Shown: one piece after another, positions 2,978 to 22,509 of the stretch
Numbering within the stretch: the first letter of the stretch is position 1
Layout of the letters: each line of letters begins with the position of its first letter
From: Candidatus Thorarchaeota archaeon
GTDB lineage: Archaea; Asgardarchaeota; Thorarchaeia; Thorarchaeales; Thorarchaeaceae
Direction of reading: 5' to 3'
DNA: 35,987 bases
Assembly (NCBI GenBank): GCA_003345545.1
Contig: PRDH01000058.1
Span: 1-35,987 of the forward strand
Notes under the pieces: model-generated
What the model was told of the DNA's origin: nothing
The model's input: the letters and a program-made list of their open reading frames with translations, nothing else
The model's database searches: none
Position numbers and translations under genes: made by a program

Positions 2978-3730
2978 ATGATTACGCAACTGGACGAACA
3001 ACTAGCCGCAGCAGTAAGAGGTGTGAAAGCACACACCACCGTAGATGTCACTCTCGTCCTTCAGGTCATGTTCAATAGCAGCGATCGCAGTATTCTCACT
3101 GCTAAGCTTCGGTACAACGGGCATGACAGGGCCACTAACCTTGTGATGGTTGTTGGACTGAGGAGCGACATTCTCTCACCATTTCAGAAGATCAACTCTA
3201 GTCAGAGAGGACGCTATCAACCCTGTGATATTCCTGGATTGGTGCCAGGGCTCGCGCAGCTCGCACTGTCAACAAACAATGGTGTGGTGCTTAGCGCAAT
3301 TTCACGCGAAGAGGTAACCAGATTCATCCTGGTCTTTGAAGGTTTGGCTGAGCGAAAGGGTGGAGGCTTGAAAGCACTTGCATCGGTTCTCACTGCATTC
3401 ATGAAGCGGTGGACGGACTGGACCGATGTATTGCTGGGGACTCTAAGGCGAGACCCGATTGTAGGAGATTGGGACGTCGATTGGAGGGAGATGTTGGCTG
3501 GTGAGAGCGGATATGCAACAATGGCTTGGTTCACACCCCTGACATATTCCGACCGTGAAACCGGGCTACAAAGAATCGTTGCTGCATCTCAAGCTCTACT
3601 CGTATCGGTTCTCAGCACAAATCAACTGAAGAATCCGATGATTGTTGGCCTGAAGGATTGGCTCACGTCACTGAAACCCCTTCCGCAGGTCGCAAGTAGC
3701 ATACAAGTCAGTGAGGAGGTAGAAATCTAA
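2978..3730 (+). CDS. Hypothetical protein (~250 aa), first gene of the 15-gene operon
   Basis: Long ORF; ATG at 2978 preferred over TTG at 2945. Its 3' end contains the SD (GAGGAGGT, 3713-3720) for the next gene. No family recognised. Confidence 0.75.
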   Translation: MITQLDEQLAAAVRGVKAHTTVDVTLVLQVMFNSSDRSILTAKLRYNGHDRATNLVMVVGLRSDILSPFQKINSSQRGRYQPCDIPGLVPGLAQLALSTNNGVVLSAISREEVTRFILVFEGLAERKGGGLKALASVLTAFMKRWTDWTDVLLGTLRRDPIVGDWDVDWREMLAGESGYATMAWFTPLTYSDRETGLQRIVAASQALLVSVLSTNQLKNPMIVGLKDWLTSLKPLPQVASSIQVSEEVEI

Positions 3731-3734
3731 TTTG

Positions 3735-4199
3735 ATGGTTGATGATGTAATTTACAGTATTCCCCGTGAAACATATAGCCTGCCCCAAGCGTCATGGTTG
3801 TCAGGTGCAGCAGCTGGTCTTCAGATTATGGGCCCGAGGACCCCTGAGTGGCTTTGGGGTGATTTCATCCATGATATCTATGATATGATACGGACGATTG
3901 GTGAAGTTGTACCTGCGGAGCCTGGTACTGCCCCTACTTATGGCGACGGCCTTGTGGGAAGTGCATTCGACGCTCTTGGGGGCTATGTCAGCATTGTAGG
4001 TGAAGTATGTCCTGAAGGGCTCTATTTTCGTGTGCCTCTGGCTCGCCAGGAGAACGTAGCTCGTTTGCTGAATGGCTTGAGACTCTTTAGATCGCATGGT
4101 GAAATCGTTATTCCTGTGTACGATCTTCCAGCCTTCTCGCGTCTTGTTCCTCTGGAAGGACCGGTTGCTGAGCAGCTTGAAGATGAGGTGACTCCATGA
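3735..4199 (+). CDS. Hypothetical protein (~154 aa)
   Basis: SD upstream (start TTG 3732 or ATG 3735). Stop overlaps the radA start (ATGA, 4196-4199) with GAGGTGA SD. Confidence 0.75.
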   Translation: MVDDVIYSIPRETYSLPQASWLSGAAAGLQIMGPRTPEWLWGDFIHDIYDMIRTIGEVVPAEPGTAPTYGDGLVGSAFDALGGYVSIVGEVCPEGLYFRVPLARQENVARLLNGLRLFRSHGEIVIPVYDLPAFSRLVPLEGPVAEQLEDEVTP

Positions 4200-5287
4200 C
4201 CGAACTCGAAGCTGTGCCTGGCGTAGGCCCTGCAGTGGCCAAGAGACTTCGGGAGGCTTATGTTACCACAGCTGAGCTTCTTGCAGTGCAGAATCCTGTA
4301 GAGCTCCTGAAGCGTACAAAGTTAGGAGAGGGTACTACTGACAAGATAATCAGGAATGCTCGTCAGCTCATCGGCAAGTTCGGCTTTCGGTCTGGGCTTG
4401 AAATCGAGCAGGAAATGGCAACCAAACCTCGGCTGAAGACTGGGGTCGGCAAGATTGACGAATGCCTTCTTGGCGGCATTGAAGTCGGGTCCATCGTCGA
4501 GATATTTGGGCCTGCCCGGGGCGGAAAGACACAGTGGGTCTCGCAGCTTGCAGTGATGGCCCAACTCCCACATAAACAGGGCGGGCTTGAAGGTAGGGTT
4601 CTCTGGCTTGATACTGAGTCAAGTTTCAAACCTTGGGTGATTAGAGCGAATGCGGTCAGGCAGGGCCTGGATCCCGATATCGCGCTCGGCAACATTGGGC
4701 GTGCTGAGATTGTGCTTTCTGGCCAGATTGCTGAGATTTTTGAGAGCATTCCTCAGCTCTGCGCAGAACAGAACTACAAGCTTGTTGTGATTGACAGTTT
4801 CACTGGTCTCTTTCGTGCCGAGTACACAGGGCTCGAGTCTATGCGTGTCCGACAACAGGACATGAATACTCTTCTCAATCACATGCGACGTACAGCTGCT
4901 GCAACAGAAGCAATCTTTGCATATACGAACCAAGTCATGGCCAAGATTTCAAGCTACGGAGGCAATCCCAACGCGCCTGTCGGTGGGCATATCATTTCGC
5001 ATGCAAGTGACTACAGATTCTATACACGCAGGACCAAGGCTGATATTCGCAAGATCGAACTGCAGGACAACGCCGGCCTGCCAGAGTTCGATGTTGACGT
5101 GTATGTAGGCTGGGGTGGTTTCTACTCTGACTCCAAGGCAAAGAAGGAGCATGAGCCTGATGTATTAGAGTACTTCGAGAAGCGAGGGATCAACGTTCAG
5201 GAGGAGGCAGGTGCACTGGACTCCGATTCGGAAGACGAGGGGCTCGCTGCAGCGGCCGAGTCAGTCCCGGCAGGTGACGATGCGTGA
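4196..5287 (+). CDS. radA: RadA/Rad51-family recombinase (probably an additional, divergent RadA) with acidic C-terminal tail
   Basis: N-terminal HhH (LEAVPGVGPAVAKRL), polymerisation motif GFRSG, Walker A GPARGGKT, LDTESSF catalytic Glu, Walker B LVVIDSF, FRAEY..RQQ (L1), TNQV..PVGGHIISHAS (L2). Confidence 0.92.
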   Translation: MTELEAVPGVGPAVAKRLREAYVTTAELLAVQNPVELLKRTKLGEGTTDKIIRNARQLIGKFGFRSGLEIEQEMATKPRLKTGVGKIDECLLGGIEVGSIVEIFGPARGGKTQWVSQLAVMAQLPHKQGGLEGRVLWLDTESSFKPWVIRANAVRQGLDPDIALGNIGRAEIVLSGQIAEIFESIPQLCAEQNYKLVVIDSFTGLFRAEYTGLESMRVRQQDMNTLLNHMRRTAAATEAIFAYTNQVMAKISSYGGNPNAPVGGHIISHASDYRFYTRRTKADIRKIELQDNAGLPEFDVDVYVGWGGFYSDSKAKKEHEPDVLEYFEKRGINVQEEAGALDSDSEDEGLAAAAESVPAGDDA

Positions 5288-5742
5288 GCAGAAACCGGGG
5301 TATGTTCCGAATCTACCATTGTGCGAGATGCAACAACATTGGCTACAGCCAAGTAGAGCGTGAAGAGGATCTCTCCAGATGTGGTCTATGTGGCAGTCTC
5401 GTTCTACACGAAACTGGATCTGTCTACGCAGCGACGACGCAAGAGGCCAAGACGTTGGCACGGGAACTTGCTCTTGAATCACATTCTTCAACGGCGGTTT
5501 CAGAGGGAAGCCCTCCACGTGGACTAGGTGTCAAGAGGAGAGTATACAATATCATTGAGGCACAAGTAGACCTCAAACGGGGCAAACCCACCTCACTTGA
5601 GGAAGTGATGAGGGAGTGCAGTGAGGCGGGGATAGAGCTTGGCCGCGCAATGAAGTTCCTAGAAACTCTGGAGTCGGAGGGCTTGATTGTCAATGATGGC
5701 GCGAATATTACTGTAACACGCGAGGTATTGTCCGATGGCTAG
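5284..5742 (+). CDS. Zn-ribbon + C-terminal winged-helix protein (archaeal DUF1922/DUF5817-like architecture)
   Basis: CARC...CGLC Zn ribbon and C-terminal wHTH (SLEEVMRECSEAGIELGRAMKFLETLESEGLI). GTGA overlap with radA. The DUF name is a recollection, not a search result. Confidence 0.75.
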   Translation: MSRNRGMFRIYHCARCNNIGYSQVEREEDLSRCGLCGSLVLHETGSVYAATTQEAKTLARELALESHSSTAVSEGSPPRGLGVKRRVYNIIEAQVDLKRGKPTSLEEVMRECSEAGIELGRAMKFLETLESEGLIVNDGANITVTREVLSDG

Positions 5743-6355
5743 CTCCGATAGCCTTTCAGATCCCTTGTCGGCCAATAGGTCAGCGGCGTGCATTCCGCAG
5801 TGGTCGATGATCAATCTAGTCAACCTCTTGCTCAGAGAAACGCCACATAGGGTATCTGTTCTAGAGCGATGCGATGGCCCTGATCCTCAGATATTCGTCG
5901 TGACGCGCGTTGAATGGAGAGACCCTGACATCAGCAAACCATTTCTCTCGCAGTTACCTAGACTACTCTCTCTTCTCGAAACTCTTCGTGGTTCCAAGGG
6001 TGTTCCTCAGGAAGTGCACCTAGACAGTGCAGAAGGCGTCGCTGTCCACCTGCCAAGCGGTGTGAGGGCTTCTGAGTTACCTGGTGAACCCAAGAAGGCA
6101 GTCCATCTTCTGATGTCTATTGTAGAAACCTCTCTAGAAAATCTGCATTCAACAATGAGCGACGTTGAATCTTGGTTCTGGAAGGCTGCTCGCCAGAAGG
6201 GATTCAGTCCTGAAATTGTTGAGAAGATGGGGAAGAAGGAGGCACACTACGACTCTGTTGATCTGATGTGGCGGTTTCAACGACTCCTCCAGAAGTACTT
6301 CTCATTGAGGTTCACTATTCATCGGAGCGAGTCTTGCCTAAGATTGGAGGAATAA
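5735..6355 (+). CDS. Hypothetical protein (206 aa)
   Basis: 8-nt overlap with previous gene and GAGGT SD. Its end carries the GGAGG SD of xpd. Confidence 0.75.
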   Translation: MASSDSLSDPLSANRSAACIPQWSMINLVNLLLRETPHRVSVLERCDGPDPQIFVVTRVEWRDPDISKPFLSQLPRLLSLLETLRGSKGVPQEVHLDSAEGVAVHLPSGVRASELPGEPKKAVHLLMSIVETSLENLHSTMSDVESWFWKAARQKGFSPEIVEKMGKKEAHYDSVDLMWRFQRLLQKYFSLRFTIHRSESCLRLEE

Positions 6356-6357
6356 AG

Positions 6358-8310
6358 GTGAGCGTGGCGACAACTGACCCTATGGTCTATTTCCCCTACT
6401 CTCCCCGGCAACATCAGGAGAGAGCTGTTAGCCTAGCTGCAAAGGCTTTCTCCTCGAATACGGTCGGACTTCTTCATGCAGATTGTGGGATTGGCAAGAC
6501 AATCGCGGTGCTCTCCGGATATCTTGCCTGTCGAGCTACTGATCAATTCGCTCATCTTTTTGCTCTGACGCGCACTCATTCCCAATCTAAGGTCTTTGAA
6601 ACAGAGCTTGAAGTGCTCAGAAGTGCAGTGCCTCATTTGGCTGCCACCACGATGGTATCTCGAGTCCATGTCTGCCCCATTCGTCATCAGATGGAATCGC
6701 TCAGTCATACAGGTTTCATGCGAGCGTGTGCAAGTATGATAAAGACTGAGCAATGCATCCACTATTGGAATCTCTACAAGCGAAGCAGTACTGATGGCAA
6801 GATTACCATCAATGAGGATGGACGCAGGGCAATAGGGGACCTACTTGATACTGGGGTTGTCACGAGAGAGAGAGCTGAAGAACGAGCGGAGCAGGATGGC
6901 TACTGTCCCTACGAGATTATGCGGTGGTGCGCTCGTGGAAGTATGGTAGTCATCGGACCTTATTCCTATATATTCAAGTCACGAGTCCGAGAGGCTCTCC
7001 TCTCATCCTTAGGGCTTTCTCTCAATGAAGTGGACCTGCTCATCGATGAGGCTCACAATCTATCAGGGCACGTCCTTGATGCTGAAACATCGGTTTTAAG
7101 CAACGACGATATCCGATGGCTGAAAGAGAATAGCCAGTTCGTGGTCCGAGAAACAGGCGTATCGTGGATTCGCGAGGCCATAGACTTTCTTTGGGAGAGC
7201 ATGATGCTTCACCTGGACACTATGCAGAAACAGACGGAGCGTCCTCTTGACAAATGGGATGTTGCACCTAGGTTCATCAAGGATGAGGACCTAGACATAT
7301 TGCATCACGTGGGCAGACCAGAGCTTGGTGACCCTGAGAATGCCAGTCTTGTTGAAACACCTCTTGATAGACTCATTGAGTTCCTCTACACTGCTCAGAG
7401 AGCTGCACGAAGCGATGGTTGGCACGTTACCCTGCATGTGGATCGTTCATTCTCTGATGACTTACCAAAATCAACCTCTTCTCTCATGATACAACCACTT
7501 AACTCTGCAGGATTGACTGCTCCAATTCTCAGAGGAGCTAGATCTGCTGTACTGATGTCTGGGACTCTCCGCCCGCTGGACTATTACGAGCATCTTTTGG
7601 GCGTGCCAAACGCAATATCAGAAGACCTCACAAGCCCGTACCCCCGAGGAACACGATTAGTACTCATCGATAAGATGCTGAACACGCGGTACAAGGAACG
7701 CAACCCAGAATTATGGCGAGATGTTGCAGCAAGGATCTCTGCTGCTCTCTGTACCATGCCTGCGAATAAGAGTGCGCTCATTGCATTTCCATCCTACAAA
7801 ATGATGAGCGAGGTCATGAGCTACAGCATAGATACTGGATTTCGGGAAGCATTAGTAGAAACGCGAGATGCCATGCTCGAAACCGTTGCCCAAGCGATTT
7901 CACAAGGCCCATGCGCCATGTTCTGCGTATATGGCGGCAAATTCTCGGAAGGAATCGATCTTGTCAGTGCAGGTTCCAGTATGATTGACCTGATCGTCGG
8001 TGTAGGCATACCATTCAGCCCTCCGACAAGCTATCAGACTGCCCTACAGAGCTGGTATGATAGCAAGTTCGGGCATGGCATGGGCTACTACTATGCATCT
8101 GTCGTACCATCAATCAGACAGGTCGCACAGTTGGTTGGAAGACTGAGACGCTCTCCAAATGATTCTGGTGTGATTGTTCTTCTTGATAGTAGGTTTCTAC
8201 AGCATCTGTCGGTCTTTGGGGATGAAATCGTATCGGACATCTGGCCATACAATGACCCCGCTGAAATGAAGGAAGCAATCACACAATTCAATCGGGTGAG
8301 GCTGCGATAG
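6358..8310 (+). CDS. xpd: XPD/Rad3/DinG-family 5'-3' Fe-S DNA helicase
   Basis: Q motif PYSPRQHQ, Walker A ADCGIGKT, Ia TRTHSQ, four Fe-S Cys (HVCP, RACA, EQCI, YCPY), DEAHN, MSGTL, FPSY, GKFSEGID, QLVGRLRR..D. GTG start 7 nt after GGAGG. Confidence 0.9.
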   Translation: MSVATTDPMVYFPYSPRQHQERAVSLAAKAFSSNTVGLLHADCGIGKTIAVLSGYLACRATDQFAHLFALTRTHSQSKVFETELEVLRSAVPHLAATTMVSRVHVCPIRHQMESLSHTGFMRACASMIKTEQCIHYWNLYKRSSTDGKITINEDGRRAIGDLLDTGVVTRERAEERAEQDGYCPYEIMRWCARGSMVVIGPYSYIFKSRVREALLSSLGLSLNEVDLLIDEAHNLSGHVLDAETSVLSNDDIRWLKENSQFVVRETGVSWIREAIDFLWESMMLHLDTMQKQTERPLDKWDVAPRFIKDEDLDILHHVGRPELGDPENASLVETPLDRLIEFLYTAQRAARSDGWHVTLHVDRSFSDDLPKSTSSLMIQPLNSAGLTAPILRGARSAVLMSGTLRPLDYYEHLLGVPNAISEDLTSPYPRGTRLVLIDKMLNTRYKERNPELWRDVAARISAALCTMPANKSALIAFPSYKMMSEVMSYSIDTGFREALVETRDAMLETVAQAISQGPCAMFCVYGGKFSEGIDLVSAGSSMIDLIVGVGIPFSPPTSYQTALQSWYDSKFGHGMGYYYASVVPSIRQVAQLVGRLRRSPNDSGVIVLLDSRFLQHLSVFGDEIVSDIWPYNDPAEMKEAITQFNRVRLR

Positions 8311-8312
8311 AT

Positions 8313-8918
8313 ATGATGCAACTACACGCTTTTCACGAATTGAAACTGGTCGGCCTGACCATTCTGACAGTCATCTTTGTGCTCAAGATCTACCTTGCTC
8401 CTGGAGACCTTGTAGGTATTATTACGGCTGGCGCTGGGCTAGCCGCATATATCGCAGCATTAGTAATTCATCTTTCATCTTCATCCAGCCCACGGGTTCT
8501 CTGGGATGCCAAGCACGGCGCGGTGGCCATCATTCGTTCTTGGACAGTCGAGGTTGCCTCAGCAAAGATCCTCTCAAGTGTTCCTATTGGCATTGACCTA
8601 AGTCATTCCGGTCGAAAGGTACTCCAGTCTATGTACACTCGATTCTTGGACAAGCCCGGGGGAACATTAGTCTTTTTCATCACCAGACCGATAGGCGACC
8701 AATCAACAAGAGTGGGCTATCTAGTTCGGAGAAGGGGATTGAGGCTCTGGAACAGCTTAGGTCAGGTTGACAACCTTGCAAAGATAATCAGTGCTGACTC
8801 CATGATTCTGGAGCGGTCGATGAGAGCTGCCTATCCTCATCTTCCTGTGGTCAACGCTAGCTTCGCCGATATCATAACATCCACAGCAGGAGGTCTTGAG
8901 ACCCATGTCGCTGTCTGA
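8313..8918 (+). CDS. Membrane protein (2 N-terminal TM helices + soluble domain)
   Basis: Hydrophobic segments LVGLTILTVIFVLKIYL and LVGIITAGAGLAAYIAALVIHL; starts 2 nt after the xpd stop. Confidence 0.75.
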   Translation: MMQLHAFHELKLVGLTILTVIFVLKIYLAPGDLVGIITAGAGLAAYIAALVIHLSSSSSPRVLWDAKHGAVAIIRSWTVEVASAKILSSVPIGIDLSHSGRKVLQSMYTRFLDKPGGTLVFFITRPIGDQSTRVGYLVRRRGLRLWNSLGQVDNLAKIISADSMILERSMRAAYPHLPVVNASFADIITSTAGGLETHVAV

Positions 8919-9204
8919 ACAACGCTCTGGAATCGAAATTCCCGAAGGTGTGAATCCAGAGGCAATCATGAACTTCTTGGAAGTAGGTCACAACTATCAT
9001 TGGACCGTGCTTACGCGTCTGCCTCTCTTTGTCGCTCACGGTGCACCTGCGCTGGGCTCCGGCAATATGCCTGAGATTCTATTAGCTGGCAATAGATCTA
9101 TGATCATCGCAGGTGGTGACACTGCATACGTCGAGAGAATACGCCACGTGCTCGAGATGTTGCAGCGTCTATCACAGCGAATGATTCTCACAAAGGAGGG
9201 TTGA
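8905..9204 (+). CDS. Small hypothetical protein (99 aa)
   Basis: ATG 8905 preceded by GGAGGT; 14-nt overlap with upstream gene; its end carries the GGAGG SD of the next gene. Confidence 0.7.
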   Translation: MSLSEQRSGIEIPEGVNPEAIMNFLEVGHNYHWTVLTRLPLFVAHGAPALGSGNMPEILLAGNRSMIIAGGDTAYVERIRHVLEMLQRLSQRMILTKEG

Positions 9205-9208
9205 GAGA

Positions 9209-11569
9209 ATGCCGAAACGCTTGATACTTGGGACAAGACCTGAATCCGATCCTCTGAAGGAGTTTTCTGACTCTGACTACTCCTCTTCCTCTTCTACCGA
9301 GATACGATGGGACGAGAGGACTCAGAGTCGCTCTCTTGCTCTACCTGCTTTCATCTCTCTCATCTGTATAGCCGTGGGGTTGTATGACCCGCTCATCCCG
9401 CTCATTGCCGGAATTGCAGTTGTTGCGCTGGTCCTATTGATGCCCTCCGTCCGAACGAACTTGGACAAGATTGTCTTGCCAGAAGGCTTTTGGATTGAGG
9501 TGAAGCAAGCGGACATGCTTTGCTCTGTCGCTGATGACCTCATGGGCCTGAGCTGCCGGACACCCAAAGGTGTCCATCATCTAGTCGGAATACAGCTCGG
9601 AGCTGCTGACTCCATTCTGCTTGGTGATGTGAGTTCGTTTGTGCGAGCGGTTGATGGCCCGTTTGGTTTTTGCCTGACCGTGATGATGCGACCCGAGAGA
9701 GTCCAACGTGCGCTGGATGAGGAACGCATTGCTGATGCAGTTGAAGACTATCTCAATGCGATACCCAAAGGGGAGGTTGAAGCCTATGTTCTTCGGCGAG
9801 GGGGCCTGTGGATTTCTCAGGTGACGGCTGTGGGCCAATTCAAAAACCCCACTGATGGCGATACCTTCGAGTGCGCCGTAAAGGCATCGATTCCCATGAC
9901 CAAATGGAAGCGCATCCCGTCTAAAGCTCTGCAAAAAGGTACCGAACAGCTTGCCGCTAACGACCAATCCAAATCGTTCTATGCAGTTGGTTCAGAACTC
10001 TCTGAATGGCTAGTGCAGCTTCGGTCAGAGCTGGCTTCCGAGGTCGGAAGAAGTATTCCCGGTCAGTTTCTTGCCCCGATCAGAGGGAGATCCGATGACT
10101 ATCGCTTAGGCGTGACCATCAATCCGGATACCTTACAGTCAGGACCGCCAGTAGGCCTCTCTCACCCTGAACTGGAGGATGGCTTGCTGATATGCGGAGG
10201 AGCTGCCGAATCAAGAATGAGAATCATTGCGCTACTGACATCCGAGCTCCTGCGTGGTGGCAAGCGCATTATCATCTTTACAAACAACAGAGCATCTATT
10301 GGTTATGCTCGGCTCTCGGAAGGAGCTGTGCATCTTGAACTCGGAAGGGACTTCGTGCTCAATCCAGTCGACTCTGAGGGTGTCCCAAGAAGCGACTATG
10401 TACCACTTCTCATCTCTTCCCTTGAAGTCGTGGCAGCCACGGACCTGAGGGGTGCCGCTGAGCTTGAGCTGGCAATATCGCGTGCCGTCACTCTTGGAAA
10501 TGCAACACTGGCTGATGTTCAACTCAACAATGGCTTTGAAGAGGCTATTTCAGCTTCTCCTGATACCTCGAAACCACTCGAATCAACGCCTTCGAACAAG
10601 TCGAAGACTGGAATGGAGGCAGTTCGTTCATTGCATCAAGGCTCTGCCGCCAAGGCATTCTATGGCACTCAGACAGTTCCCACTTCTAGACTCACAGAAT
10701 CTACGCTGACTGTTGTGAGAGTTCTTCTGGGCTCTGCATCTCTCGAGCACTTTGCTTGGAATGTGATTTCAATCAAGCTGGCTGGCCTGCGCCCGGACCC
10801 CAATCTAGTGGTGATTCTTGATGGACCGGAGAACATGCGAGTGAGGAATCGAACCTTCATGAAGCACGACTCGCTTAGTGAGCGTCTTCTTGAAAACATG
10901 AAGAAGAGAGGTCCAGTCGTAGTAGCATTGGAGCATCCTGCAGACATGGCTGCAGGAGCTATCGGTGTTTTGGCTTCGTGCGTGTCACTAAGGCTGCGCG
11001 AGGCAGCAGACATCAGTATGGCTTCCGACATATTGGGCCTGAATGTGATTACGACTCCCTTGCATACTAAAGCCCGTATCTCTCCGAGAGAATCGTCATA
11101 TCTTCGAGTAATGGAAGATGACACTGCGCTCCTTGTGCATGATGGGACTGAGAGTTGTCAACCTATTAGACTCGACCCAGCTCCAGAACTGACACCGGAG
11201 AGTGATACAGAGCAGGACTCCGAACGGATTGGCACCCTGCTATCATCTGAGGACACGAGCACAGCACCGAATCAAGGGCCTTTGCTTGATAGAGTTTCTG
11301 CGGGCAGTACTATTCTTGCTATCAGGGTCCTGAAGTTACTTGAGAGATACGAACCGTTGACTCAGGAGGCTGTACGTCGATTCATAGTGGCTAGTGGTTC
11401 AGAGAATGATCCTGACGTAGAGGCTGTCCTTGCGAGGCTTGAGCACGCCAGCATGATTCTCCGCGGTCATGAGGTCCACAGTGGGGTATCGTATACAAAC
11501 TACAGAATCACGATGAAAGGAAGCATGGCACTTCGTCAGACTGAGGGTATGGAGGGCGCAATTGTATGA
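9209..11569 (+). CDS. Membrane-anchored HerA/VirB4/FtsK-fold protein with degenerate Walker motifs (putative pseudo-ATPase) and C-terminal wHTH
   Basis: 2 N-terminal TMs. HerA-like order: YRLG..PVGL, GLLICGGAAESR (eroded Walker A), RIIIF, LGRDFVLNPVD, VVILDGPEN (eroded DEAH), MKKRGPVVVALEHPADM (cf. GRKYG..ASQRP), LRL...D....LG, DTALL. C-terminal LARLEHASMI...YRITMKG wHTH. Confidence 0.7.
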   Translation: MPKRLILGTRPESDPLKEFSDSDYSSSSSTEIRWDERTQSRSLALPAFISLICIAVGLYDPLIPLIAGIAVVALVLLMPSVRTNLDKIVLPEGFWIEVKQADMLCSVADDLMGLSCRTPKGVHHLVGIQLGAADSILLGDVSSFVRAVDGPFGFCLTVMMRPERVQRALDEERIADAVEDYLNAIPKGEVEAYVLRRGGLWISQVTAVGQFKNPTDGDTFECAVKASIPMTKWKRIPSKALQKGTEQLAANDQSKSFYAVGSELSEWLVQLRSELASEVGRSIPGQFLAPIRGRSDDYRLGVTINPDTLQSGPPVGLSHPELEDGLLICGGAAESRMRIIALLTSELLRGGKRIIIFTNNRASIGYARLSEGAVHLELGRDFVLNPVDSEGVPRSDYVPLLISSLEVVAATDLRGAAELELAISRAVTLGNATLADVQLNNGFEEAISASPDTSKPLESTPSNKSKTGMEAVRSLHQGSAAKAFYGTQTVPTSRLTESTLTVVRVLLGSASLEHFAWNVISIKLAGLRPDPNLVVILDGPENMRVRNRTFMKHDSLSERLLENMKKRGPVVVALEHPADMAAGAIGVLASCVSLRLREAADISMASDILGLNVITTPLHTKARISPRESSYLRVMEDDTALLVHDGTESCQPIRLDPAPELTPESDTEQDSERIGTLLSSEDTSTAPNQGPLLDRVSAGSTILAIRVLKLLERYEPLTQEAVRRFIVASGSENDPDVEAVLARLEHASMILRGHEVHSGVSYTNYRITMKGSMALRQTEGMEGAIV

Positions 11570-13758
11570 ATGTGATTTCGGATGTGACCTCACAAGTCAC
11601 AAAACTACTCAGTCAGGCTGGGATGAAACCCCGGGGTATTCAGACCGAGGCAATCAACAGAGGTCTCTTGGAGGGAGAGAGCATCATGGTCTCCTCTCCA
11701 ACAGGCTCTGGCAAGACATTATGCGGTGAGATTGCACTTCTGAGAGCAGCTGCCTCCGGAAAGAAAGGACTGTTTCTCGTGCCATTACGAGCTCTTGCAG
11801 TTCAGGTATTCAGAACGATGAGAGAAAGATACGAGCACTTGGGCATCTCCATCGGACTGAGCACAGGTGATTTTCAAGACAATGGAGATGGGCTCGCTGC
11901 GAATGATATCATCGTCACGACGTACGAACGTGCAGATTCACTCTTGCGAAGCAGAAGTAGTTGTCTCTCGGAGGTTGGCACGATTGTCATCGATGAAATT
12001 CAAACGCTCTCTGAAACTGGCCGAGGAGCTCGTCTTGAGAGCTTCATTATTCGGGCAAAGCGAAGCATTCAAGACCTTCAGATTGTGGCACTATCCGCCA
12101 CAACAGGTGCTCCCGAGGAACTTGCTGAGTGGCTGGGATGTCGTCTTGTAATCTCAGACGAACGCCCTGTTCCTCTTGTGTATCGAGTAATCACAGCTAG
12201 TGACAAGGTTCTCACGATCAGGCACTTGGTGATGACCACCGTTCAAGCGAATGGACAGGCAATCATCTTTCACAGGACTCGTCGGGAAGCTGAAGCGGAG
12301 GCTAGACGACTCGCCGATGATGTGGGGCGCCAGTTCACTTCTGATGAGAAGACGCGCCTTGATCACGAGTTGAACTCAGTTGAGAATTGGTATGTGCCCC
12401 TCTCGTCAGATCTTAAGACCCTTCTACACAATGGCGTCGCATTTCATCATGCAGGTCTCGGCTTCAATGGTCGGCGAATTGTTGAGCGATTGTTCGATGA
12501 AGGATTGGTCCGCGTCATTTGTGCCACGACAACATTGTCAGCCGGAATGGACCTGCCAGCAAGAACCGTGATACTCTCCAACTTCAAGTCTCCTGCTGAC
12601 CATAGAAGATTCCTGTCAGCAAATACGGTCCATCAGATGCTGGGGAGGGCAGGTCGTCCTACTCATGACAAGATAGGATTCGGAATCATCATTGGAAGCA
12701 GCACCGGTGAGAGTGAGGAGGCAAAACGCCGGTACTTCGAAGTCACTGAAGATGCGACTTCAGGAAAGGAAGTTCTATCTCCCAGATATGATCGTATCAA
12801 CAGCGCACTTGCCCACCCAGACACTCTTGCTGAACAGCTTCTTGTTGCTCTCGATATGATTTCCCCAGCATCGATTGAAGATGTCGAGAATGGCTTGCTT
12901 GGTGAATCCTTTTTGGTCTTCTGTGCAATTCGAGACTCAAAGGCTCCCATGAGGGTTCTGCAGTTGGGTGAAATCTCGGCGGCTTCGGTCTTGGAGCAGC
13001 ATGCCCTCCTTGAAACCATTCAGACTGCCCGCAAGGACTTACTTGGCAAGACGTCACTTCGTGAGAAGAACGAGACAGTAATTGGCGGGATTGTTACGAT
13101 GCTTGATGGGGGGCAATTCACCTGTCGCTTCTCGGTACGTCTTTCATCATCGGGCGTTGTTGAAGGTCCAATGTGCTCGTGTGGCTCACCCTTGTCAGAG
13201 AGCGGCATTCTGTGCTATCATCTAGTGACCCTAGGAATGGCTGCTGCCAGAGACCTGGGCAATCTGGCTGATTACGTCATTCCTCTCTCACTCTCTGAAT
13301 CGAGCCCTCTGGGTCTGCTGATACGCCTTGGGCTCGTCGAGGGTGATATCAATGGCAAGATTAGACCTACACGTCTTGGTCGGGCCGTGAGCAGGCTCTA
13401 TCTACGGATCCCCACAGTTCGAGAAACCCTTGCAATGCTCCCTTCGACTGATGACGTTGAGTCGCTCTTATGGCTCTTGAGGCACGTTGTTTCAATTGAA
13501 ACAGGGATGTCACTCGGTGACGGATTTGATAATTTGATCAGCTATCTTGTGACGACCGAAACCTCGATAGAAGACTTGGCGCACCAGTTTGAGCTAGGCA
13601 TCGGCGATGTTTATGGCTTGCTGGACACTTCTAGGTGGCTTCTCCACGCCATTTCTGCCTTAGCAGATTTGGGAGGTCTTGAGAAAGCAACTGAGATAGC
13701 CAAGGGCCTTTGTGAGGCGTTAGATCGACGACTGACAAACAATGTAGAGGAGGACTAA
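11566..13758 (+). CDS. hel308: Hel308/Hjm (Ski2-like) DNA helicase with inserted SWIM Zn finger, lacking C-terminal HhH domain
   Basis: PRGIQ, SPTGSGKT, VPLRALA, TTYE, DEIQ, LSAT, RPVPL, GVAFHHAGL, ATTTLSAGMDLPA, QMLGRAGRP, PTRLGRAVSRLYL, GDVYGLLDTSRWLL ratchet helix. CSC-x10-CYH at 13174-13221. ATGA overlap. Confidence 0.85.
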   Translation: MNVISDVTSQVTKLLSQAGMKPRGIQTEAINRGLLEGESIMVSSPTGSGKTLCGEIALLRAAASGKKGLFLVPLRALAVQVFRTMRERYEHLGISIGLSTGDFQDNGDGLAANDIIVTTYERADSLLRSRSSCLSEVGTIVIDEIQTLSETGRGARLESFIIRAKRSIQDLQIVALSATTGAPEELAEWLGCRLVISDERPVPLVYRVITASDKVLTIRHLVMTTVQANGQAIIFHRTRREAEAEARRLADDVGRQFTSDEKTRLDHELNSVENWYVPLSSDLKTLLHNGVAFHHAGLGFNGRRIVERLFDEGLVRVICATTTLSAGMDLPARTVILSNFKSPADHRRFLSANTVHQMLGRAGRPTHDKIGFGIIIGSSTGESEEAKRRYFEVTEDATSGKEVLSPRYDRINSALAHPDTLAEQLLVALDMISPASIEDVENGLLGESFLVFCAIRDSKAPMRVLQLGEISAASVLEQHALLETIQTARKDLLGKTSLREKNETVIGGIVTMLDGGQFTCRFSVRLSSSGVVEGPMCSCGSPLSESGILCYHLVTLGMAAARDLGNLADYVIPLSLSESSPLGLLIRLGLVEGDINGKIRPTRLGRAVSRLYLRIPTVRETLAMLPSTDDVESLLWLLRHVVSIETGMSLGDGFDNLISYLVTTETSIEDLAHQFELGIGDVYGLLDTSRWLLHAISALADLGGLEKATEIAKGLCEALDRRLTNNVEED

Positions 13759-13763
13759 CAGTA

Positions 13764-15452
13764 TTGGAAACTCGTTTGATTAGAACGAATGAGGTTGATG
13801 AAGAAACAACGGAAAAAGGAACGACCCAGAGTTCCAATAATACTGGCGTTTTGGAAACTCTGAAACTCACCGGTCATATCACCACGGACTATCCAAATGG
13901 ATTGACAGTAGGGGTCAAACTGGGGTCTGTTCCGGGAACTCGAGGCGTGCACGTCGACGTCGTATATGCCTTGGACTTGCGAAGAGCTACATTTGGAAAG
14001 GGTGGGCTTGCCATCCGAGCTGCAGTCCTGGAAACCATAAGTCGAGACCTCGACAAGGTTCTGAATGATGTTGGACTGGGTGAACTCTTTCATGAACATG
14101 CAGTTTTGACTCCGTGGGGTCACCTACGACTGCCGTTGTTGCAGGGCGCGTCACATGGGTCTCTGTCTCTGATGCATGAAACTCGGACCGTGTATGTCAT
14201 CGTTGAGAATGCAAAGCCTACGTTCGACCTCTCCTGGCTTACAGATACCGGCAGAATAGTCACTGCTGACCAGTTCGCTCTCATTAGTCAGAGTGATTCC
14301 CGTTTGAAGCTCTCAGATTTGAAGAAGAGCGTTGGGAGTGAAAAGTGGCAGCTTCTTGAAATGGGTTTGGCAAAGGGCTGGTTTGGTATCCTTGCTCTGA
14401 TCTCTCTCATGATAGGTCTATCGACATCATTCGCTGTGCTCCTTGCAGGTTCAGGTTCGTTCATCATGCCTGCACTAGTAAGCCTGGCGTCTGGTATAGT
14501 GAGCGGCTGGCTGCTACACTCCTCGAGAGCCTGCATTTCGGCATTTCAGGAAAGACTGATCAGAGAACAGGAGCAACTTCGCGAATTAGGCGACTCCGCT
14601 CGAATAAGGTGCTCTATTATGGAAAACAAGGATAGGCTTCAACTCATTGCCGACCTCAACTTCATTGTTTCGCCTCTTGTGGCCGCTGTGGGTACGGCCA
14701 TTGCCAAAGGGGACGTTGATGCAGCAGTCAGTGTTGCTTGTTCTATTCTTGATGAATGTGTCAGATTGGCTCCCCACCCCTCTGACGCATCTCCTGTGAT
14801 TCGCGGAGACGATGGCCTGCGCCATTTCATAGGGCTATTCGAGCATCTAGGCGGAAACATAGAGGAGGTGAGTCTTGCGCTCGCATATGTCGGCCTCACA
14901 GGACACCTGACTAAACGAATAACATTCGGCGAAGCAGCTGCACATTTGACAGAGTTGAACAACGCCCTCTATGACATTGGGGCACTCAGACCCAGTATCA
15001 AAGAAGCCTTGGATGACCGTCTCAACATGGTAGCACTCAAAGAAACTGTGGATGAGATAGACAAAGAGACTGGGAGTGCCGAGAAGCCTACCCTTGCGTC
15101 AAGGGCAAAGATTGATGAAAAGGGCGTGCGCGACGAGCCGCGACCGGAAGAAGCAGCACCTCTCGAGCACTCCGATAGCCTCACTGAGGATGACGAACTT
15201 CATGATCAGATTCGACAAGCCTCTGTTGAGGTATCTCCAGAAAGTGAACCAGATGCTCCGGTCGATTCTGGTACAAAGATATCTGACCCGACCGAGGAAG
15301 TGACCATTGTCGCTACTGACATTATTACTGGGAGAATGAAGAAACGGAAGAGTAAACCTGCTGAACCAGGGCAGCTTCTTCTAATTGAGGACTTTGAGTA
15401 TACAGAATCAGGCAGTGAAGCTAGCGAGGAGCGTGAATCTGCTGGTGTCTAA
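13764..15452 (+). CDS. Membrane protein (2 central TM helices, helical region, acidic disordered C-terminus)
   Basis: TTG start after GAGGAGG. TMs WFGILALISLMIGLSTSFAVLLAG and FIMPALVSLASGIVSGWLL. E/D/P-rich last ~130 aa. Confidence 0.75.
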   Translation: METRLIRTNEVDEETTEKGTTQSSNNTGVLETLKLTGHITTDYPNGLTVGVKLGSVPGTRGVHVDVVYALDLRRATFGKGGLAIRAAVLETISRDLDKVLNDVGLGELFHEHAVLTPWGHLRLPLLQGASHGSLSLMHETRTVYVIVENAKPTFDLSWLTDTGRIVTADQFALISQSDSRLKLSDLKKSVGSEKWQLLEMGLAKGWFGILALISLMIGLSTSFAVLLAGSGSFIMPALVSLASGIVSGWLLHSSRACISAFQERLIREQEQLRELGDSARIRCSIMENKDRLQLIADLNFIVSPLVAAVGTAIAKGDVDAAVSVACSILDECVRLAPHPSDASPVIRGDDGLRHFIGLFEHLGGNIEEVSLALAYVGLTGHLTKRITFGEAAAHLTELNNALYDIGALRPSIKEALDDRLNMVALKETVDEIDKETGSAEKPTLASRAKIDEKGVRDEPRPEEAAPLEHSDSLTEDDELHDQIRQASVEVSPESEPDAPVDSGTKISDPTEEVTIVATDIITGRMKKRKSKPAEPGQLLLIEDFEYTESGSEASEERESAGV

Positions 15453-16128
15453 TGGACCGCTGATGTACGCGCTCGGTCTTGGAGGCTTGATTCACCTGTG
15501 GGGAGATGCAGGATCGGGCAAGACACTTTTCGCTGTTGCGCTTGCCTGCGATGTTTCCAAGAATCATCGGGTTGAATGGATCAATACTGATGCGAAGAAG
15601 AGTTTCGTGTCTCATCTCAAGAAGAATGCAGTCGCTTCAGGCGGCAAAATGGAGAACATCACAGTCACATTCACTGAGGATCAGGCAGAGCTATGTACGC
15701 TTATTGAAGGACTACCTAGCGCGATTGCTGGTGTTTCTCTAGTTATCATTGACCCAATCACACGAGTCCTTGACCTGGCTCGCGATAATCCAATCCTATG
15801 GGGTCGTGAGATTATCGAGGACGTATTACCGACGCTGACAGGTATTGTGAGTCAAAACAACATCGATTTCATCATCACTAGCGAGAGCCGCATGATGCCG
15901 GACTCAACTAATCGCGCAGTCCATCACAACTCGATATCAAGGTGGGCCGACCATGATCTCTGCATTACTCGCAACACGGGCAGTCCTCATTCGCAGGTAT
16001 CAAGATTCTCCGAGAACGGAATGAAAGAACTTGCTTCGATGCGGATGGATAGTCGAGGGGTGATTGAAGTCATACCACAAATGGTTCTGCCGACTGCATC
16101 AGGAGGGGTGAATGAACTTGTTTGGTAA
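15433..16128 (+). CDS. Short RecA/Rad51-fold paralog (RadB-like) with intact Walker A
   Basis: IHLWGDAGSGKT, VEWINTD, Walker B LVIIDPIT, FIITSE. No N-terminal HhH and no RadB KHR motif. Start is uncertain (GTG 15433 or 15445). Confidence 0.8.
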   Translation: MNLLVSNGPLMYALGLGGLIHLWGDAGSGKTLFAVALACDVSKNHRVEWINTDAKKSFVSHLKKNAVASGGKMENITVTFTEDQAELCTLIEGLPSAIAGVSLVIIDPITRVLDLARDNPILWGREIIEDVLPTLTGIVSQNNIDFIITSESRMMPDSTNRAVHHNSISRWADHDLCITRNTGSPHSQVSRFSENGMKELASMRMDSRGVIEVIPQMVLPTASGGVNELVW

Positions 16129-17086
16129 TGTTCTGACGAAGATGATCGTGCTTGTCGTGGGCGGAGCGATCGTTATCGCTGCCGGCGCAGAATTGCTGGC
16201 GTCGGTGGCTTCTGTAGTACTAGCATTTCGACTTGGCGACTTCGTACCACTTCTTGCTATAGCTGTGTTGACAATAGTCATTCAGACACTCACCAATCAT
16301 GTTGCCTATGAGTCTCGCGGGTTCATTCTCATGACAGCGCTAGCTTATGCTATCACTGGTTATCTTGCTTTCACTGTCTTCCTGATAGCTCTTCCCTACG
16401 GTCTGATTGTATCGTTTCTGGCAAGTGGAGCGGTGTGCGTGATATCATCGATATCTCGTAAGCAGAAGCTAGGCATATACTGGAAGCAAGTCATGCAGTC
16501 ACTCAGTCACTCGCAGAACGGCCACCATGGGCTGCCCAATAGGCAAGTCCCTTTGGGCGATGGGACTTCCTTCAAGATGAATTCGTTCAATACTGTGGTG
16601 ATTCTGGAGGAAGGCAGCAGAGAAAGGATTGTTCAGTTGCTACGAGAACGCCCGCTCTTGCCAGTTTCATTCACACATTACGAAGACTGTGATGTCATAT
16701 TCATCGCTGATGAAAATGATCCTATGCGATGTGAACAAGTCATGAAACTCCTGAAGGACTCCAGCATCGGAGTAAAGGGTCCTGCGTCACCATTGCTTGC
16801 TGAGGCTGTGCAGATGGTCCCCATACTTGATTCTCGGAATGGTCTGAAGTTCGAGGACTACCGGCTTACACGTGACGAGAAGACAATCAGCAGTCTCCTT
16901 GTTCAGGCGCCATCGCGTATGACGGTCTTTCCTTCACCCCTCGGGCTTGGCATACTGATTCCCGCCCCGGAGGTGTCAGGAATGAACGTCGAACGCCTCA
17001 AGCGAGGATGTGAAGCTGATATCCTACTAAATCGAGAGTACTCACATCTTGAGGAGGTCGAAAAGTCAATTGAGAGCACCACTTGA
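16112..17086 (+). CDS. Polytopic membrane protein (~4 N-terminal TM helices + cytoplasmic domain)
   Basis: First ~115 aa form about four hydrophobic stretches followed by the basic RKQK. SD GGAGGGGTGA; 17-nt overlap with previous gene. Confidence 0.75.
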   Translation: MNLFGNVLTKMIVLVVGGAIVIAAGAELLASVASVVLAFRLGDFVPLLAIAVLTIVIQTLTNHVAYESRGFILMTALAYAITGYLAFTVFLIALPYGLIVSFLASGAVCVISSISRKQKLGIYWKQVMQSLSHSQNGHHGLPNRQVPLGDGTSFKMNSFNTVVILEEGSRERIVQLLRERPLLPVSFTHYEDCDVIFIADENDPMRCEQVMKLLKDSSIGVKGPASPLLAEAVQMVPILDSRNGLKFEDYRLTRDEKTISSLLVQAPSRMTVFPSPLGLGILIPAPEVSGMNVERLKRGCEADILLNREYSHLEEVEKSIESTT

Positions 17087-17786
17087 GTCACTTGCGACAG
17101 CAACCGAATCGCTGTTCCGACTACATCCCAGAATATTGAATGATACCATAGGGAAGTTGTTTCTTCCTCAGCAGGTTAGTCTCTTTCACGGACGAGAACG
17201 TGCGCCGCTCAGCATACTCGCTCACACAATAGCGGTTTCTGCTGCCAGAATTGAAAACGCAAGTTGTGCATTCTTGGACTCAGGAACGAACTATTGCCCA
17301 GCGCTCATTCGAGCACTCTGCGATTCAAAGAAAGAGTCAGCAGAACTACTGAAGAGAATCGTTGTGGGGCAGGTCTTCGGATTGGATGACGTTGTTGAGA
17401 AGGTTCAACTACTCTATGATATGGGCAACATTTCCTTAATCGTTCTTGATAGTATCACTGGCGCCCTGAACCTATCAGGAGCTCCCGGCAGCATCGGCCG
17501 TCAGAGAACACTCTTTGGCACCCTGGATGCCATTCGACACGCAAACAATTACCTGAATTCTCATGTCATGATTACTGACCATTCATCGCAAGACTGGACA
17601 TCTGGGGAGCCAACTCCCATTGGCGGGAATATTCTCTCGCATGCAGTCGACAGCGTGGTGCTTGTCGATAGATTGCGTCAAGGCGAAGAGCTCGTTCGTA
17701 TACTGATTGAACGAAGCTCATCTCCGACAGCAGCTCTTGGCGTTATAGTCAAAGCTGGACCGAAGGGAATCAGAAGCATCAGGTGA
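17070..17786 (+). CDS. Rad51-paralog-like protein with inactivated Walker A
   Basis: VSLFHGRERAPLS (no GKT), FLDSGTNY, LKRIVVGQVF, Walker B LIVLDSIT, RQRTL, VMITDH, PIGGNILSHA (close to RAD51 PIGGNIIAHA). TTG start after GAGGAGGT. Confidence 0.8.
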   Translation: MRAPLESLATATESLFRLHPRILNDTIGKLFLPQQVSLFHGRERAPLSILAHTIAVSAARIENASCAFLDSGTNYCPALIRALCDSKKESAELLKRIVVGQVFGLDDVVEKVQLLYDMGNISLIVLDSITGALNLSGAPGSIGRQRTLFGTLDAIRHANNYLNSHVMITDHSSQDWTSGEPTPIGGNILSHAVDSVVLVDRLRQGEELVRILIERSSSPTAALGVIVKAGPKGIRSIR

Positions 17787-17791
17787 GTTCC

Positions 17792-18787
17792 ATGGGTGTG
17801 AAGAACTGGGGCGATGATGTCATTCCGTGGAAGTGGATCTCAGCATCCTTCATCACTCCTGGAGCGATTGCCATAGATGTTCCAAACTATGTCACTCGAA
17901 GACTTGTCGTGATGCGTGAGAATGGTAAGCAAGAGGGCAGAATACCCCTGAATCACGTTGGTTTGTTTCTTAGCCTCCTCAAAGTTGCATTGGGTGTTCA
18001 CGTTCTTCCCGTCTTCATCTTTGATGGTCCTCCGGAATTACAGAAACGCAATCCGAATCCCGAACTAGTTGAGAAGGCTTCAGGTTTCTACAGAACATTC
18101 CAACAGGAAGGAGATCCCTTTAACGAAGAGATGTCTGCTGAGCTATGGGGAAGTCCTGCGCTCAGAGCGTATTTTGCTGCTGCGCATTTGAAAGACCTTG
18201 GGAGTATTGTGGGCGTTCCGATGCTTACAGCGCCTTCTGAAGCAGAGATGTTTGCAGCGGTTCTCTGTAGGGATGGAGCTGTAAGGACAGTTGTGTCAAA
18301 TGATGCTGATGCTCTGCTCTTTGGGAGCCCTCATGTCACGAAACAAATGCAGCTCTCATCAGGTCGCATTCTCTCTGTTGCATTGACCGAATTTGAGAAA
18401 CATCTTGGCCTCGACATCGAGCTCCTACGAGATCTTGCGGTCGTGTCAGGATGTGATTTTCATAAGAAGGGTGTTAGGGGTATTGGAGTGAAACGTGGAA
18501 CGGTCCTTCTTCGGCGATATGGAGGTCTCGAAAGATTGCTCAAGGCTCATGGCTACTCCCATACAGAGCGGACTGAGTTCATCGAGGCGAGGGAGGTATT
18601 TGATGAGGCTTCCTATATGTCCGCCAAAGATTTGTGTCTGAAACTGAACCCTCCGCTTGTGTCCAAGGTCATTAGATCCCTTGAGACTATCATGTCCTCG
18701 GAACGAGCAGAGACTATCGCCAGCAAGATAGTTACCCTATGGCGAGGTTTTAGCAACAGGCAGTCAACATTGGAGCAATGGCTCTAG
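17792..18787 (+). CDS. fen: FEN1/XPG-family structure-specific nuclease (FEN1 paralog) with PIP box
   Basis: MGV start, IAID, FIFDG, APSEAE, SNDADALLFG, SGCDF..GVRGIG (H3TH), C-terminal QSTLEQWL PIP box; SD AGGTGA. Confidence 0.88.
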   Translation: MGVKNWGDDVIPWKWISASFITPGAIAIDVPNYVTRRLVVMRENGKQEGRIPLNHVGLFLSLLKVALGVHVLPVFIFDGPPELQKRNPNPELVEKASGFYRTFQQEGDPFNEEMSAELWGSPALRAYFAAAHLKDLGSIVGVPMLTAPSEAEMFAAVLCRDGAVRTVVSNDADALLFGSPHVTKQMQLSSGRILSVALTEFEKHLGLDIELLRDLAVVSGCDFHKKGVRGIGVKRGTVLLRRYGGLERLLKAHGYSHTERTEFIEAREVFDEASYMSAKDLCLKLNPPLVSKVIRSLETIMSSERAETIASKIVTLWRGFSNRQSTLEQWL

Positions 18788-20829: not shown

Positions 20830-20942
20830 CCGTTTTCGTTCTCTGTGTCGCCCTTGAGACACATGTACGCTTTTGTAAATAGCGGCTAGTGGCTCTCTCT
20901 GGGAATTTACGTGCTTATTAATGTCAATTCAGACCAATTGAT

Positions 20943-22327: not shown

Positions 22328-22509
22328 GTCCTATACGAAACAATCGATTAATCATGTCCCGGGTCGATCCTTTCCCCGACGAACCACACCGCTTTCTACC
22401 ACGCTGGACCTGCATCTTGATGCAATTCCTGACCCGTCTTTTCCTAGAAGGTCGACCCGTCGGACACCCTCTCATCAAGCTCGAAGAATCTGGAGTGGAT
22501 ATCCTATGA
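22324..22509 (+). CDS. Small hypothetical protein (61 aa) coupled to both neighbours
   Basis: ATGA overlap at both ends (22324-22327 and 22506-22509); fills the gap exactly. Confidence 0.6.
   Translation: MSPIRNNRLIMSRVDPFPDEPHRFLPRWTCILMQFLTRLFLEGRPVGHPLIKLEESGVDIL

Follow-up and report, generated by a model that had tools for sequence, protein, structure and literature searches.

We consider it narrowly probable that a single 15-gene operon of Thorarchaeota encodes a second apparatus for homologous recombination, a specialised one that is built on a membrane anchor. The operon (positions 2978-18787) lies on contig PRDH01000058.1 of the Candidatus Thorarchaeota archaeon assembly GCA_003345545.1 (2.69 Mb, 92.9% complete), of which positions 1 to 35,987 of the forward strand were analysed (the window, 35,987 nucleotides (nt) long). 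An initial annotation of the window, made from the letters alone, had proposed a membrane-tethered machine that recombines incoming or exchanged DNA, of special interest should the host be an Asgard archaeon. The host is indeed Asgard, a member of the Thorarchaeota, and the paralogous, membrane-tethered character of the proposed machine stands; for import or exchange, however, nothing in our analysis speaks directly. Full-text literature searches found no published description of the operon.

Architecture of the operon

The 15 genes (g01 to g15) follow one another on the plus strand within a run of open reading frames (ORFs) that spans 2945-18787, and all ORFs were verified in the sequence. 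Read in order from g01 to g15, the junction gaps are 1, -4, -4, -8, 2, 2, -14, 4, -4, 5, -20, -17, -17 and -4 nt; neighbouring genes either overlap by 4-20 nt or are spaced by 1-5 nt (range -20 to +5 nt). A Shine-Dalgarno (SD)-like motif (GGAGG, GAGG, AGGT or GGTG) lies at most 20 nt upstream of 14 of the 15 starts. The picture of co-oriented, tightly packed genes with SD motifs, and the protein families assigned to them from the letters, were confirmed. Gene starts were picked by ortholog agreement (g01 ATG 2978, g06 GTG 6358, g08 8905, g12 15433, g14 17070); the most likely starts of g01 and g06, ATG 2978 and GTG 6358, are small corrections to the initial annotation. The features are listed below, with protein lengths in amino acids (aa) and TM standing for transmembrane:

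2978..3730 (+): g01, soluble, family-less protein of 250 aa; first operon gene in Thorarchaeota loci
3732..4199 (+): g02, soluble, family-less protein of 155 aa; syntenic in Thorarchaeota at 38-91% identity
4196..5287 (+): g03, divergent RadA paralog with HhH domain, RecA core and acidic tail (Pfam Rad51, NCBIfam RadA)
5284..5742 (+): g04, Cys4 zinc-ribbon with four invariant Cys and a C-terminal winged-helix-like part
5735..6355 (+): g05, soluble alpha/beta protein without a recognised fold (AlphaFold2 (AF2) model)
6358..8310 (+): g06, XPD/Rad3-type Fe-S helicase paralog of the 5'-3' family (Pfam DEAD_2, Helicase_C_2)
8313..8918 (+): g07, two predicted N-terminal TM helices and a soluble domain (hydropathy; complex prediction with g09)
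8905..9204 (+): g08, small soluble protein, syntenic in Thorarchaeota, without a family match
9209..11569 (+): g09, 786 aa, with TM hairpin, N-domain, VirB4/HerA-fold domain and C-terminal winged helix-turn-helix (wHTH) (AF2 model)
11566..13758 (+): g10, Hel308 paralog of the 3'-5' family with an inserted SWIM-type CxC...CxH (NCBIfam Hel308-type models)
13764..15452 (+): g11, membrane protein with soluble N-terminal part, central TM region, helical part and acidic tail (hydropathy)
15433..16128 (+): g12, short ATPase of RecA fold (RadB/KaiC-like), Walker A and B both intact (Pfam AAA_25)
16112..17086 (+): g13, membrane protein with about four N-terminal TM helices and a soluble C-domain (hydropathy)
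17070..17786 (+): g14, RadA/Rad51 paralog without Walker A (Pfam Rad51)
17783..18787 (+): g15, FEN1 paralog with a C-terminal PIP-like motif (Pfam XPG_I)
18784..20862 (-): family-less gene of 692 aa at a conserved position, the convergent 3' neighbour, possibly associated with the operon

Pfam and NCBIfam recognise the enzymes g03, g06, g10 and g15, and g12 and g14 give weak RecA/RadB-like matches. For g01, g02, g04, g05, g07, g08, g09, g11 and g13, Pfam, NCBIfam, PADLOC and PHROGs returned no match, and profile searches against PDB sequences with alignments of g09, g05, g04, g13 and g07 gave no meaningful one; g04 found weak zinc-finger and winged-helix-like sequences only. The ESM Atlas search with g01 yielded no usable match. 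The AF2 model of g05 has a mean predicted local distance difference test (pLDDT) score of 77.6; its best VIA Z of 5.5 marks a weak likeness to secretion-chaperone-like folds, with no Foldseek match at E<=0.001 and Atlas TM-scores below 0.5. Hydropathy places TM segments in g07, g09, g11 and g13. When all operon proteins were compared with one another by hhalign, relations emerged solely among g03, g12 and g14, and the idea of a domain shared by g07, the N-terminal part of g09, g11 and g13 gained no support.

A second recombination toolkit beside the canonical genes

The operon enzymes are divergent extra paralogs with intact catalytic motifs, and comparison with the rest of the genome strongly supports their status as a second toolkit, because better-scoring RadA, RadB-like, XPD, Hel308, FEN1 and HerA-NurA proteins are encoded elsewhere. 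The canonical RadA lies on contig C39 (305 bits versus 178 for g03), the better-scoring FEN1 on contig C46 and an adjacent canonical HerA-NurA pair on contig C78, the operon contig itself being C58; a RadB-like gene, a second XPD and further Hel308-like genes are likewise found elsewhere in the genome. To these other copies, the operon proteins show only 38% (RadA), 25% (XPD), 33-35% (Hel308) and 26% (FEN1) identity. The DUF87 model had no match on contig C58, g09 included, and the operon has no NurA. The expectation that the operon enzymes are paralogs of housekeeping genes located elsewhere was thus upheld.

Family membership was judged from profile scores, and motif invariance over 14-32 orthologs, depending on the protein. 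With 176.6 bits to Pfam Rad51, 256 bits to NCBIfam RadA (NF003301, cut-off 259) and 231 bits to TIGR02236 (cut-off 361), g03 has the domains and Walker motifs of the family at scores below the cut-offs and is on this basis a RadA-family paralog, not a RadA equivalog; its Walker A G/K/T and its Walker B D do not vary among 24 orthologs. g06 satisfies the XPD/Rad3 family criteria, with DEAD_2 and Helicase_C_2 above the Pfam cut-off, and its motif I, DEAH box and four Fe-S Cys are invariant. Its best matches among PDB sequences are archaeal XPDs (130 bits), and a eukaryotic affinity (FANCJ/CHL1) was not seen in this score ranking. NCBIfam Hel308-type models score g10 at 270-354 bits, the best (354 versus a cut-off of 887) covering mainly residues 11-394, and Helicase_dom4_arc at 24.7 stays under its cut-off of 27; g10 is, by these scores, a Hel308-family paralog below the equivalog cut-offs. 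No variation among 32 orthologs was seen in its SWIM motif, helicase motif I or DE[IV]Q; the CxC...CxH is present, yet Pfam SWIM (PF04434) gave no match at E<=0.01.

The two remaining RecA-fold proteins differ in their Walker A motifs. g12 matches Pfam AAA_25 and, weakly, NCBIfam RadB, has an invariant GxxGxGKT and Walker B D, and aligns with g03 at an hhalign probability of 97.4%. g14 matches Pfam Rad51 at 26.9 bits and g03 at 100% in hhalign; across 26 orthologs Walker A is missing and the Walker B D is invariant. The last enzyme, g15, reaches 107.5 bits to fen_arch (cut-off 352), passes XPG_I and falls below the cut-off of XPG_N, which makes it, as judged by these models, a FEN1-family paralog under the equivalog cut-off. 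Its acidic residues are invariant across orthologs, and its C-terminus (window 18760-18787) carries a conserved QxxLxxW[LIV] that resembles a PCNA-interacting PIP box. Among PDB sequences FEN1 (~82 bits) outscores XPG, GEN1 and EXO1; a eukaryotic affinity of g15 (EXO1/GEN1/XPG) was not seen in this ranking.

Conservation in Thorarchaeota and in a sister family

The order g01-g15 is identical in ~45 Thorarchaeota loci at 40-95% identity, and no locus of sufficient length departs from it. The flanks are conserved as well: a divergent GH3-family gene lies upstream, and the convergent 692-aa gene lies at the operon's 3' end in nearly all long-enough Thorarchaeota loci (21-89% identity), its stop codon overlapping with that of g15. 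No integrase or other mobile-element mark was found around the operon. A mobile element or provirus was rejected on this absence, on the conserved flanks and on one pattern scan of viral contigs that found no relative.

The g09 profile matched 52 of 76 sampled genomes of the family, the one genome of the sister family (1/1) and 26 of 90 high-quality genomes phylum-wide. Five genomes that lack g09 and are at least 90% complete were checked; four also lack g05 and g13, and the fifth, in which the operon is divided among contigs, has g05 and g13 on two other contigs. The operon is therefore kept or missing as a unit. These observations strongly support one conserved 15-gene unit, a vertically inherited chromosomal operon of Thorarchaeota.

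The sister-family genome (G025) holds a reduced, co-linear form, in the order two uncharacterised proteins, RadA paralog, g04, g05, XPD paralog, a 141-aa protein, a 118-aa TM protein, g09, SWIM-Hel308, a g11 homolog (hhalign 90.4%, 3' of Hel308) and a 196-aa polytopic TM protein. Since this reduced form includes membrane genes, the membrane genes travel with the repair genes; both are present in the sister family and missing jointly elsewhere, and the lack of co-occurrence that the initial annotation had named as a refutation was thus not seen. The gene for the 196-aa protein overlaps the start of a giant surface-protein gene by 4 nt.

Several neighbouring features were noted along the way. 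In the window, a giant protein of 2754 aa (22071-30335, +; 3.3 kb downstream of the operon) contains Big_1, Big_3_5, MG2, Filamin and prenyltransferase-like domains, and its homologs (L025 3-4391, -; L062 20642-22309) occur in the sister family and near the operon in genome G006. Two tandem TFB paralogs (window 32963-34997, -) have homologs that directly precede the operon region in two further genomes of Thorarchaeota (L038, L042, L062), which suggests a possible regulatory link between TFB paralogs and operon. An 85-aa ORF (window 2650-2907, -), divergent and 70 nt upstream of g01, recurs (56% identity) only in the closest relative. The related loci (n=36) are labelled as Thorarchaeota metagenome-assembled genomes (MAGs), with one short contig labelled Desulfuromonadales and one MAG labelled Hermodarchaeota. 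The former (MAXT01000013.1, L069, 2.1 kb) encodes a homolog of g09 (48% identity) and probably represents a Thorarchaeota fragment that was mis-binned; the latter (JBHLLF010000010.1, L076) shows the complete operon order.

A VirB4/HerA-fold protein with a degenerate P-loop

The membrane link of the toolkit runs through g09, whose AlphaFold model was built from 16 orthologs. An N-terminal helical hairpin coincides with the TM segment and is followed by an alpha/beta N-domain and a P-loop-type domain. Residues 289-661 superimpose on VirB4 with Z 23.9 (root mean square deviation 3.4 over 308 residues), on DndH-C with Z 20.7 and on HerA with Z 19.8, and residues 692-786 match the wHTH of RosR (Z 12.8). 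The HerA/VirB4 fold and TM anchor assigned to g09 from the letters are thus borne out by the model.

A role as a Ced-type motor did not survive closer inspection. At the Walker A site, all Thorarchaeota g09 proteins have CGG, four variable residues and Arg in place of GK[ST], and Walker B reads hhhhD-G; short g09 homologs in other Asgard families share the deviant loop but retain D-[DE]. A profile of the P-loop region, run against 1.84 billion representative proteins, gave 3642 matches at E<=0.001 and 124 at E<=1e-30. When every third of the best 150 was sampled, the deviant loop proved to be the rule, with the first canonical GSGKT at rank 145; about 140 database clusters count among the homologs without GK[ST]. 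Members of the deviant-P-loop family come in sizes of ~520 aa, ~780-850 aa (with an N-terminal extension) and ~1260 aa. We take them to represent a large, undescribed VirB4/HerA-fold family whose members are, judging from this motif, very unlikely to be ordinary ATPases. Because the Walker A Lys-Ser/Thr is missing in every homolog examined, and the homologs fail the CedB/TedB ATPase motif, a CedB-type motor role is not expected for g09, which is probably a scaffold and not a motor. One further member of 847 aa (L104 10001-12544) has a 275-aa gene directly upstream and lies near SIR2-TPR, DNA methyltransferase, restriction-enzyme-like and faint tyrosine-recombinase-like genes, a context unlike that of the Asgard recombination loci.

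A partner for g09 is suggested by complex prediction. Residues 58-201 of g07 and 95-690 of g09 gave an ipSAE of 0.80, compared with 0.00 for the best control, a mark reached by 58 of 80 solved complexes and by 2 of 110 mismatched pairs, counts that are only rough given that own alignments were used here. Prediction runs agreed in at least 67% of contacts, with a partner pLDDT of at least 79, and the predicted interface is a strand pairing of g07 118-125 with g09 154-161 in the N-domain. In several other Asgard families the g09-like gene is immediately preceded by a gene for a g07-like protein (hhalign 91.7%, E 7.7e-7), and these proteins share YPH and C-terminal GG motifs with g07. Binding of g07 to the g09 N-domain is thus supported, though as a prediction and not as a demonstrated contact. 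In genome G006, g08 is in frame with g09, forming one ORF of 873 aa.

The other membrane proteins of the operon have segments predicted at ~201-251 of g11 (two or three helices) and about four TM helices in g13. Family and ESM Atlas searches with g11 gave no match, the g13 profile found nothing among PDB sequences, VirB6/TrwI included, and neither did the g07 profile. The Thorarchaeota operon contains no small two-helix protein of the VirB2/CedA1/TedC kind; small TM proteins, 99-132 aa long, are encoded in the versions of other Asgard families. From their predicted topology, the TM proteins of the Thorarchaeota operon resemble anchors that carry large domains in the cytoplasm, not channels.

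A wider Asgard core around SWIM-Hel308

Genomes of four other Asgard families have a short g09-like gene in or near operons with a Hel308 paralog, small TM proteins, a polytopic TM protein, a small RecA-fold ATPase and, often, a divergent RadA. Gene content thus supports a core beyond Thorarchaeota that comprises g07-like and short g09-like proteins, SWIM-Hel308, divergent RadA, the small RecA-fold ATPase and small membrane proteins. In all five genomes tested there is a canonical Hel308, which scores 627-677 bits in four of them, is matched with an interruption in the other and has no SWIM where checked, and each of the same five also has a system-linked copy (246-314 bits), all with CxC...CxH. 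In a maximum-likelihood tree the canonical Hel308 clade (100/99) excludes the SWIM copies, and a further clade (100/100) unites the SWIM copies of Thorarchaeota. Monophyly of all system-linked SWIM-Hel308 proteins was not accepted, its support being weak (74/89) and a long branch interfering. A SWIM helicase also lies near a g09-family form of 1262 aa at a metagenomic locus. In genome G031, a different locus (L088, G031:C12) encodes one more Hel308 paralog with SWIM, which may mark a second copy of the system.

Discussion

How could these proteins work together? In the mechanism that we favour, g07, g08 and g09 with g11 and g13 would build a platform, itself catalytically silent, at the cytoplasmic membrane face, and this platform would hold DNA through the g09 wHTH. 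Helicases of opposite polarity, XPD-type (5'-3') and SWIM-Hel308 (3'-5'), would open DNA at an end, a gap or a flap; trimming of 5' flaps would fall to the FEN1 paralog, possibly coupled to PCNA through its PIP-like tail; and the RecA-fold pair g12/g14 would serve as mediator by loading the RadA paralog, which would then carry out strand exchange. The helicase polarities, the flap trimming, the mediator role of g12/g14 and the DNA holding by the wHTH are inferred from what is known of the families. As for the DNA handled, we regard incoming or exchanged DNA and the cell's own chromosome as about equally likely.

Several points weigh against this assembly on a membrane anchor. For nine of the 15 proteins neither a family nor a fold can be assigned, which leaves the greater part of the machine a black box. 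Products of a single operon do not have to assemble into one complex, and contact between the enzymes and the platform is putative. The g09 model has a pLDDT of 64, better in the core; membrane topology and ring formation of g09 are model-based predictions; and the conserved Arg in the degenerate P-loop, together with the acidic Walker-B-like residues of the non-Thorarchaeota homologs, leaves room for some nucleotide binding. Finally, the operon is dispensable: some genomes at least 90% complete do without it.

Among the rival explanations, the one we take most seriously, while holding it unlikely, is import or exchange in the manner of the Ced and Ted systems or of a type IV secretion system (T4SS), in which DNA would cross via the TM proteins and the VirB4-like protein and be recombined at once by the toolkit. 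VirB4 is the best structural match of g09 (Z 23.9), which has an N-terminal TM hairpin; the small TM protein encoded upstream (g07), predicted to bind the N-domain, recalls VirB3-VirB4; polytopic and small TM proteins lie beside the g09-like gene in other Asgard versions; HerA and Rad50 genes occur in Ted loci (PMC9905601); and a giant Ig/MG2-domain surface protein is encoded nearby, its gene in the sister family being coupled in translation to the reduced operon. A P-loop that lacks the Walker A Lys-Ser/Thr in every homolog, however, argues against transport power as in CedB or VirB4, profile searches with g13 and g07 against PDB sequences showed no likeness to VirB6/CedA, VirB2/CedA1 or VirB3, the Thorarchaeota TM proteins are anchor-like and not channel-like, and the operon has no pilus or secretion ATPase gene. 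A bolder proposal, speculative and somewhat less likely again, is that an Asgard-wide module derived from VirB3/VirB4 would bring DNA of other cells to the membrane and to a dedicated toolkit (SWIM-Hel308, the Rad51-paralog mediator pair and the RadA paralog; in Thorarchaeota also XPD and FEN1), so that DNA exchange would be coupled to recombination, with a mediator that prefigures HELQ-BCDX2 and Shu.

Far less probable is a barrier against foreign DNA, a membrane-sited pair of helicases with a nuclease that would destroy entering linear viral or plasmid DNA much as RecBCD does. Vertical inheritance and fixed flanks over the whole order are unlike patchy defence islands, degradation alone hardly explains three RecA-fold recombination proteins, and one pattern scan found no relative on viral contigs; what speaks for a barrier is the combination of opposite-polarity helicases with a nuclease, one distant g09-family member near SIR2-TPR and restriction-modification genes, and the match of the g10 helicase core to Hachiman HamB (136 bits). 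No protein besides g10 has a PADLOC match and HamA is absent; Hachiman was rejected, as the HamB likeness extends over the helicase core only (136 versus 354 bits for Hel308) and no HamA is present. Marginally less probable still is chance or regulatory clustering, by which ordinary back-up repair paralogs and unrelated membrane genes would merely share one transcript. Nine proteins without known function and the putative nature of the contact between enzymes and membrane proteins would fit such clustering, but the interleaved order and its overlapping junctions are retained at 40% identity, all parts are missing jointly, and in several other Asgard families the membrane and VirB4-like genes travel with SWIM-Hel308 and a RadA paralog even though the loci are rearranged.

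No known relatives of eukaryotes are closer than the Asgard archaea, and the operon offers a concrete, conserved set of 15 genes to study in them: a second recombination toolkit, long kept intact alongside the housekeeping one, whose membrane link runs through a large and undescribed VirB4/HerA-fold family with a dead P-loop. It also places a SWIM Hel308 paralog beside two degenerate Rad51 paralogs, as is otherwise known from the recombination mediators of eukaryotes. If exchanged DNA is handled, the system would bear on the origin of sex-like recombination; if the cell's own DNA is handled, it would represent repair of a new, membrane-sited kind. In both cases, nine protein families would gain a first functional context.

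Comparison with known systems

Ced (Sulfolobales) and Ted (Thermoproteales) are DNA-import systems that arose from domesticated type IV secretion (PMC9905601). Like them, the operon is chromosomal and vertically kept, combines a VirB4/HerA-fold protein that has a TM anchor with small and polytopic membrane proteins, and is linked to recombination genes (HerA and Rad50 in Ted). In contrast, its VirB4-like protein lacks the Walker A Lys-Ser/Thr and has a wHTH, profile searches against PDB sequences recognised no VirB6/CedA-like channel or VirB2/CedA1-like pilin in the operon, six recombination enzymes are interleaved in the Thorarchaeota form, and the host belongs to the Asgard archaea and not to the Thermoproteota. 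The likeness to VirB3-VirB4 (R388 TrwM-TrwK, PDB 7o43 and 8rtd) consists of the fold of the g09 C-domain and of the small, upstream-encoded TM protein predicted on the N-domain. The N-domain, however, is unmatched on its own; g07 has no detectable sequence similarity to VirB3, the ATPase motifs of g09 are lost, and other T4SS parts are absent.

In clustering recombination genes, among them one for a HerA-superfamily protein and one for a nuclease, the operon is reminiscent of the archaeal Mre11-Rad50-HerA-NurA operons for end resection, but g09 is not matched by DUF87, is membrane-anchored and appears ATP-dead, the helicases are XPD and Hel308, and the nuclease is of the FEN1 type. With RecBCD and AddAB the operon may share a way of working only, in that a pair of motors with opposite polarities works with a nuclease and a RecA-family recombinase is loaded; there is no architectural homology, the parts are separate polypeptides with a membrane platform, and the polarities follow from family membership only. 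A parallel in gene content is to the eukaryotic mediator complexes HELQ-BCDX2 and Shu (the latter a SWIM protein with Rad51 paralogs), as a Hel308/HELQ-family helicase, a SWIM motif and two degenerate Rad51 paralogs, one with and one without Walker A, are encoded together. Here, though, the SWIM forms part of the helicase as an insertion, the top scores of g15 and g06 are to FEN1 and archaeal XPD and not to EXO1/GEN1/XPG or FANCJ/CHL1, and the likeness is one of gene content.

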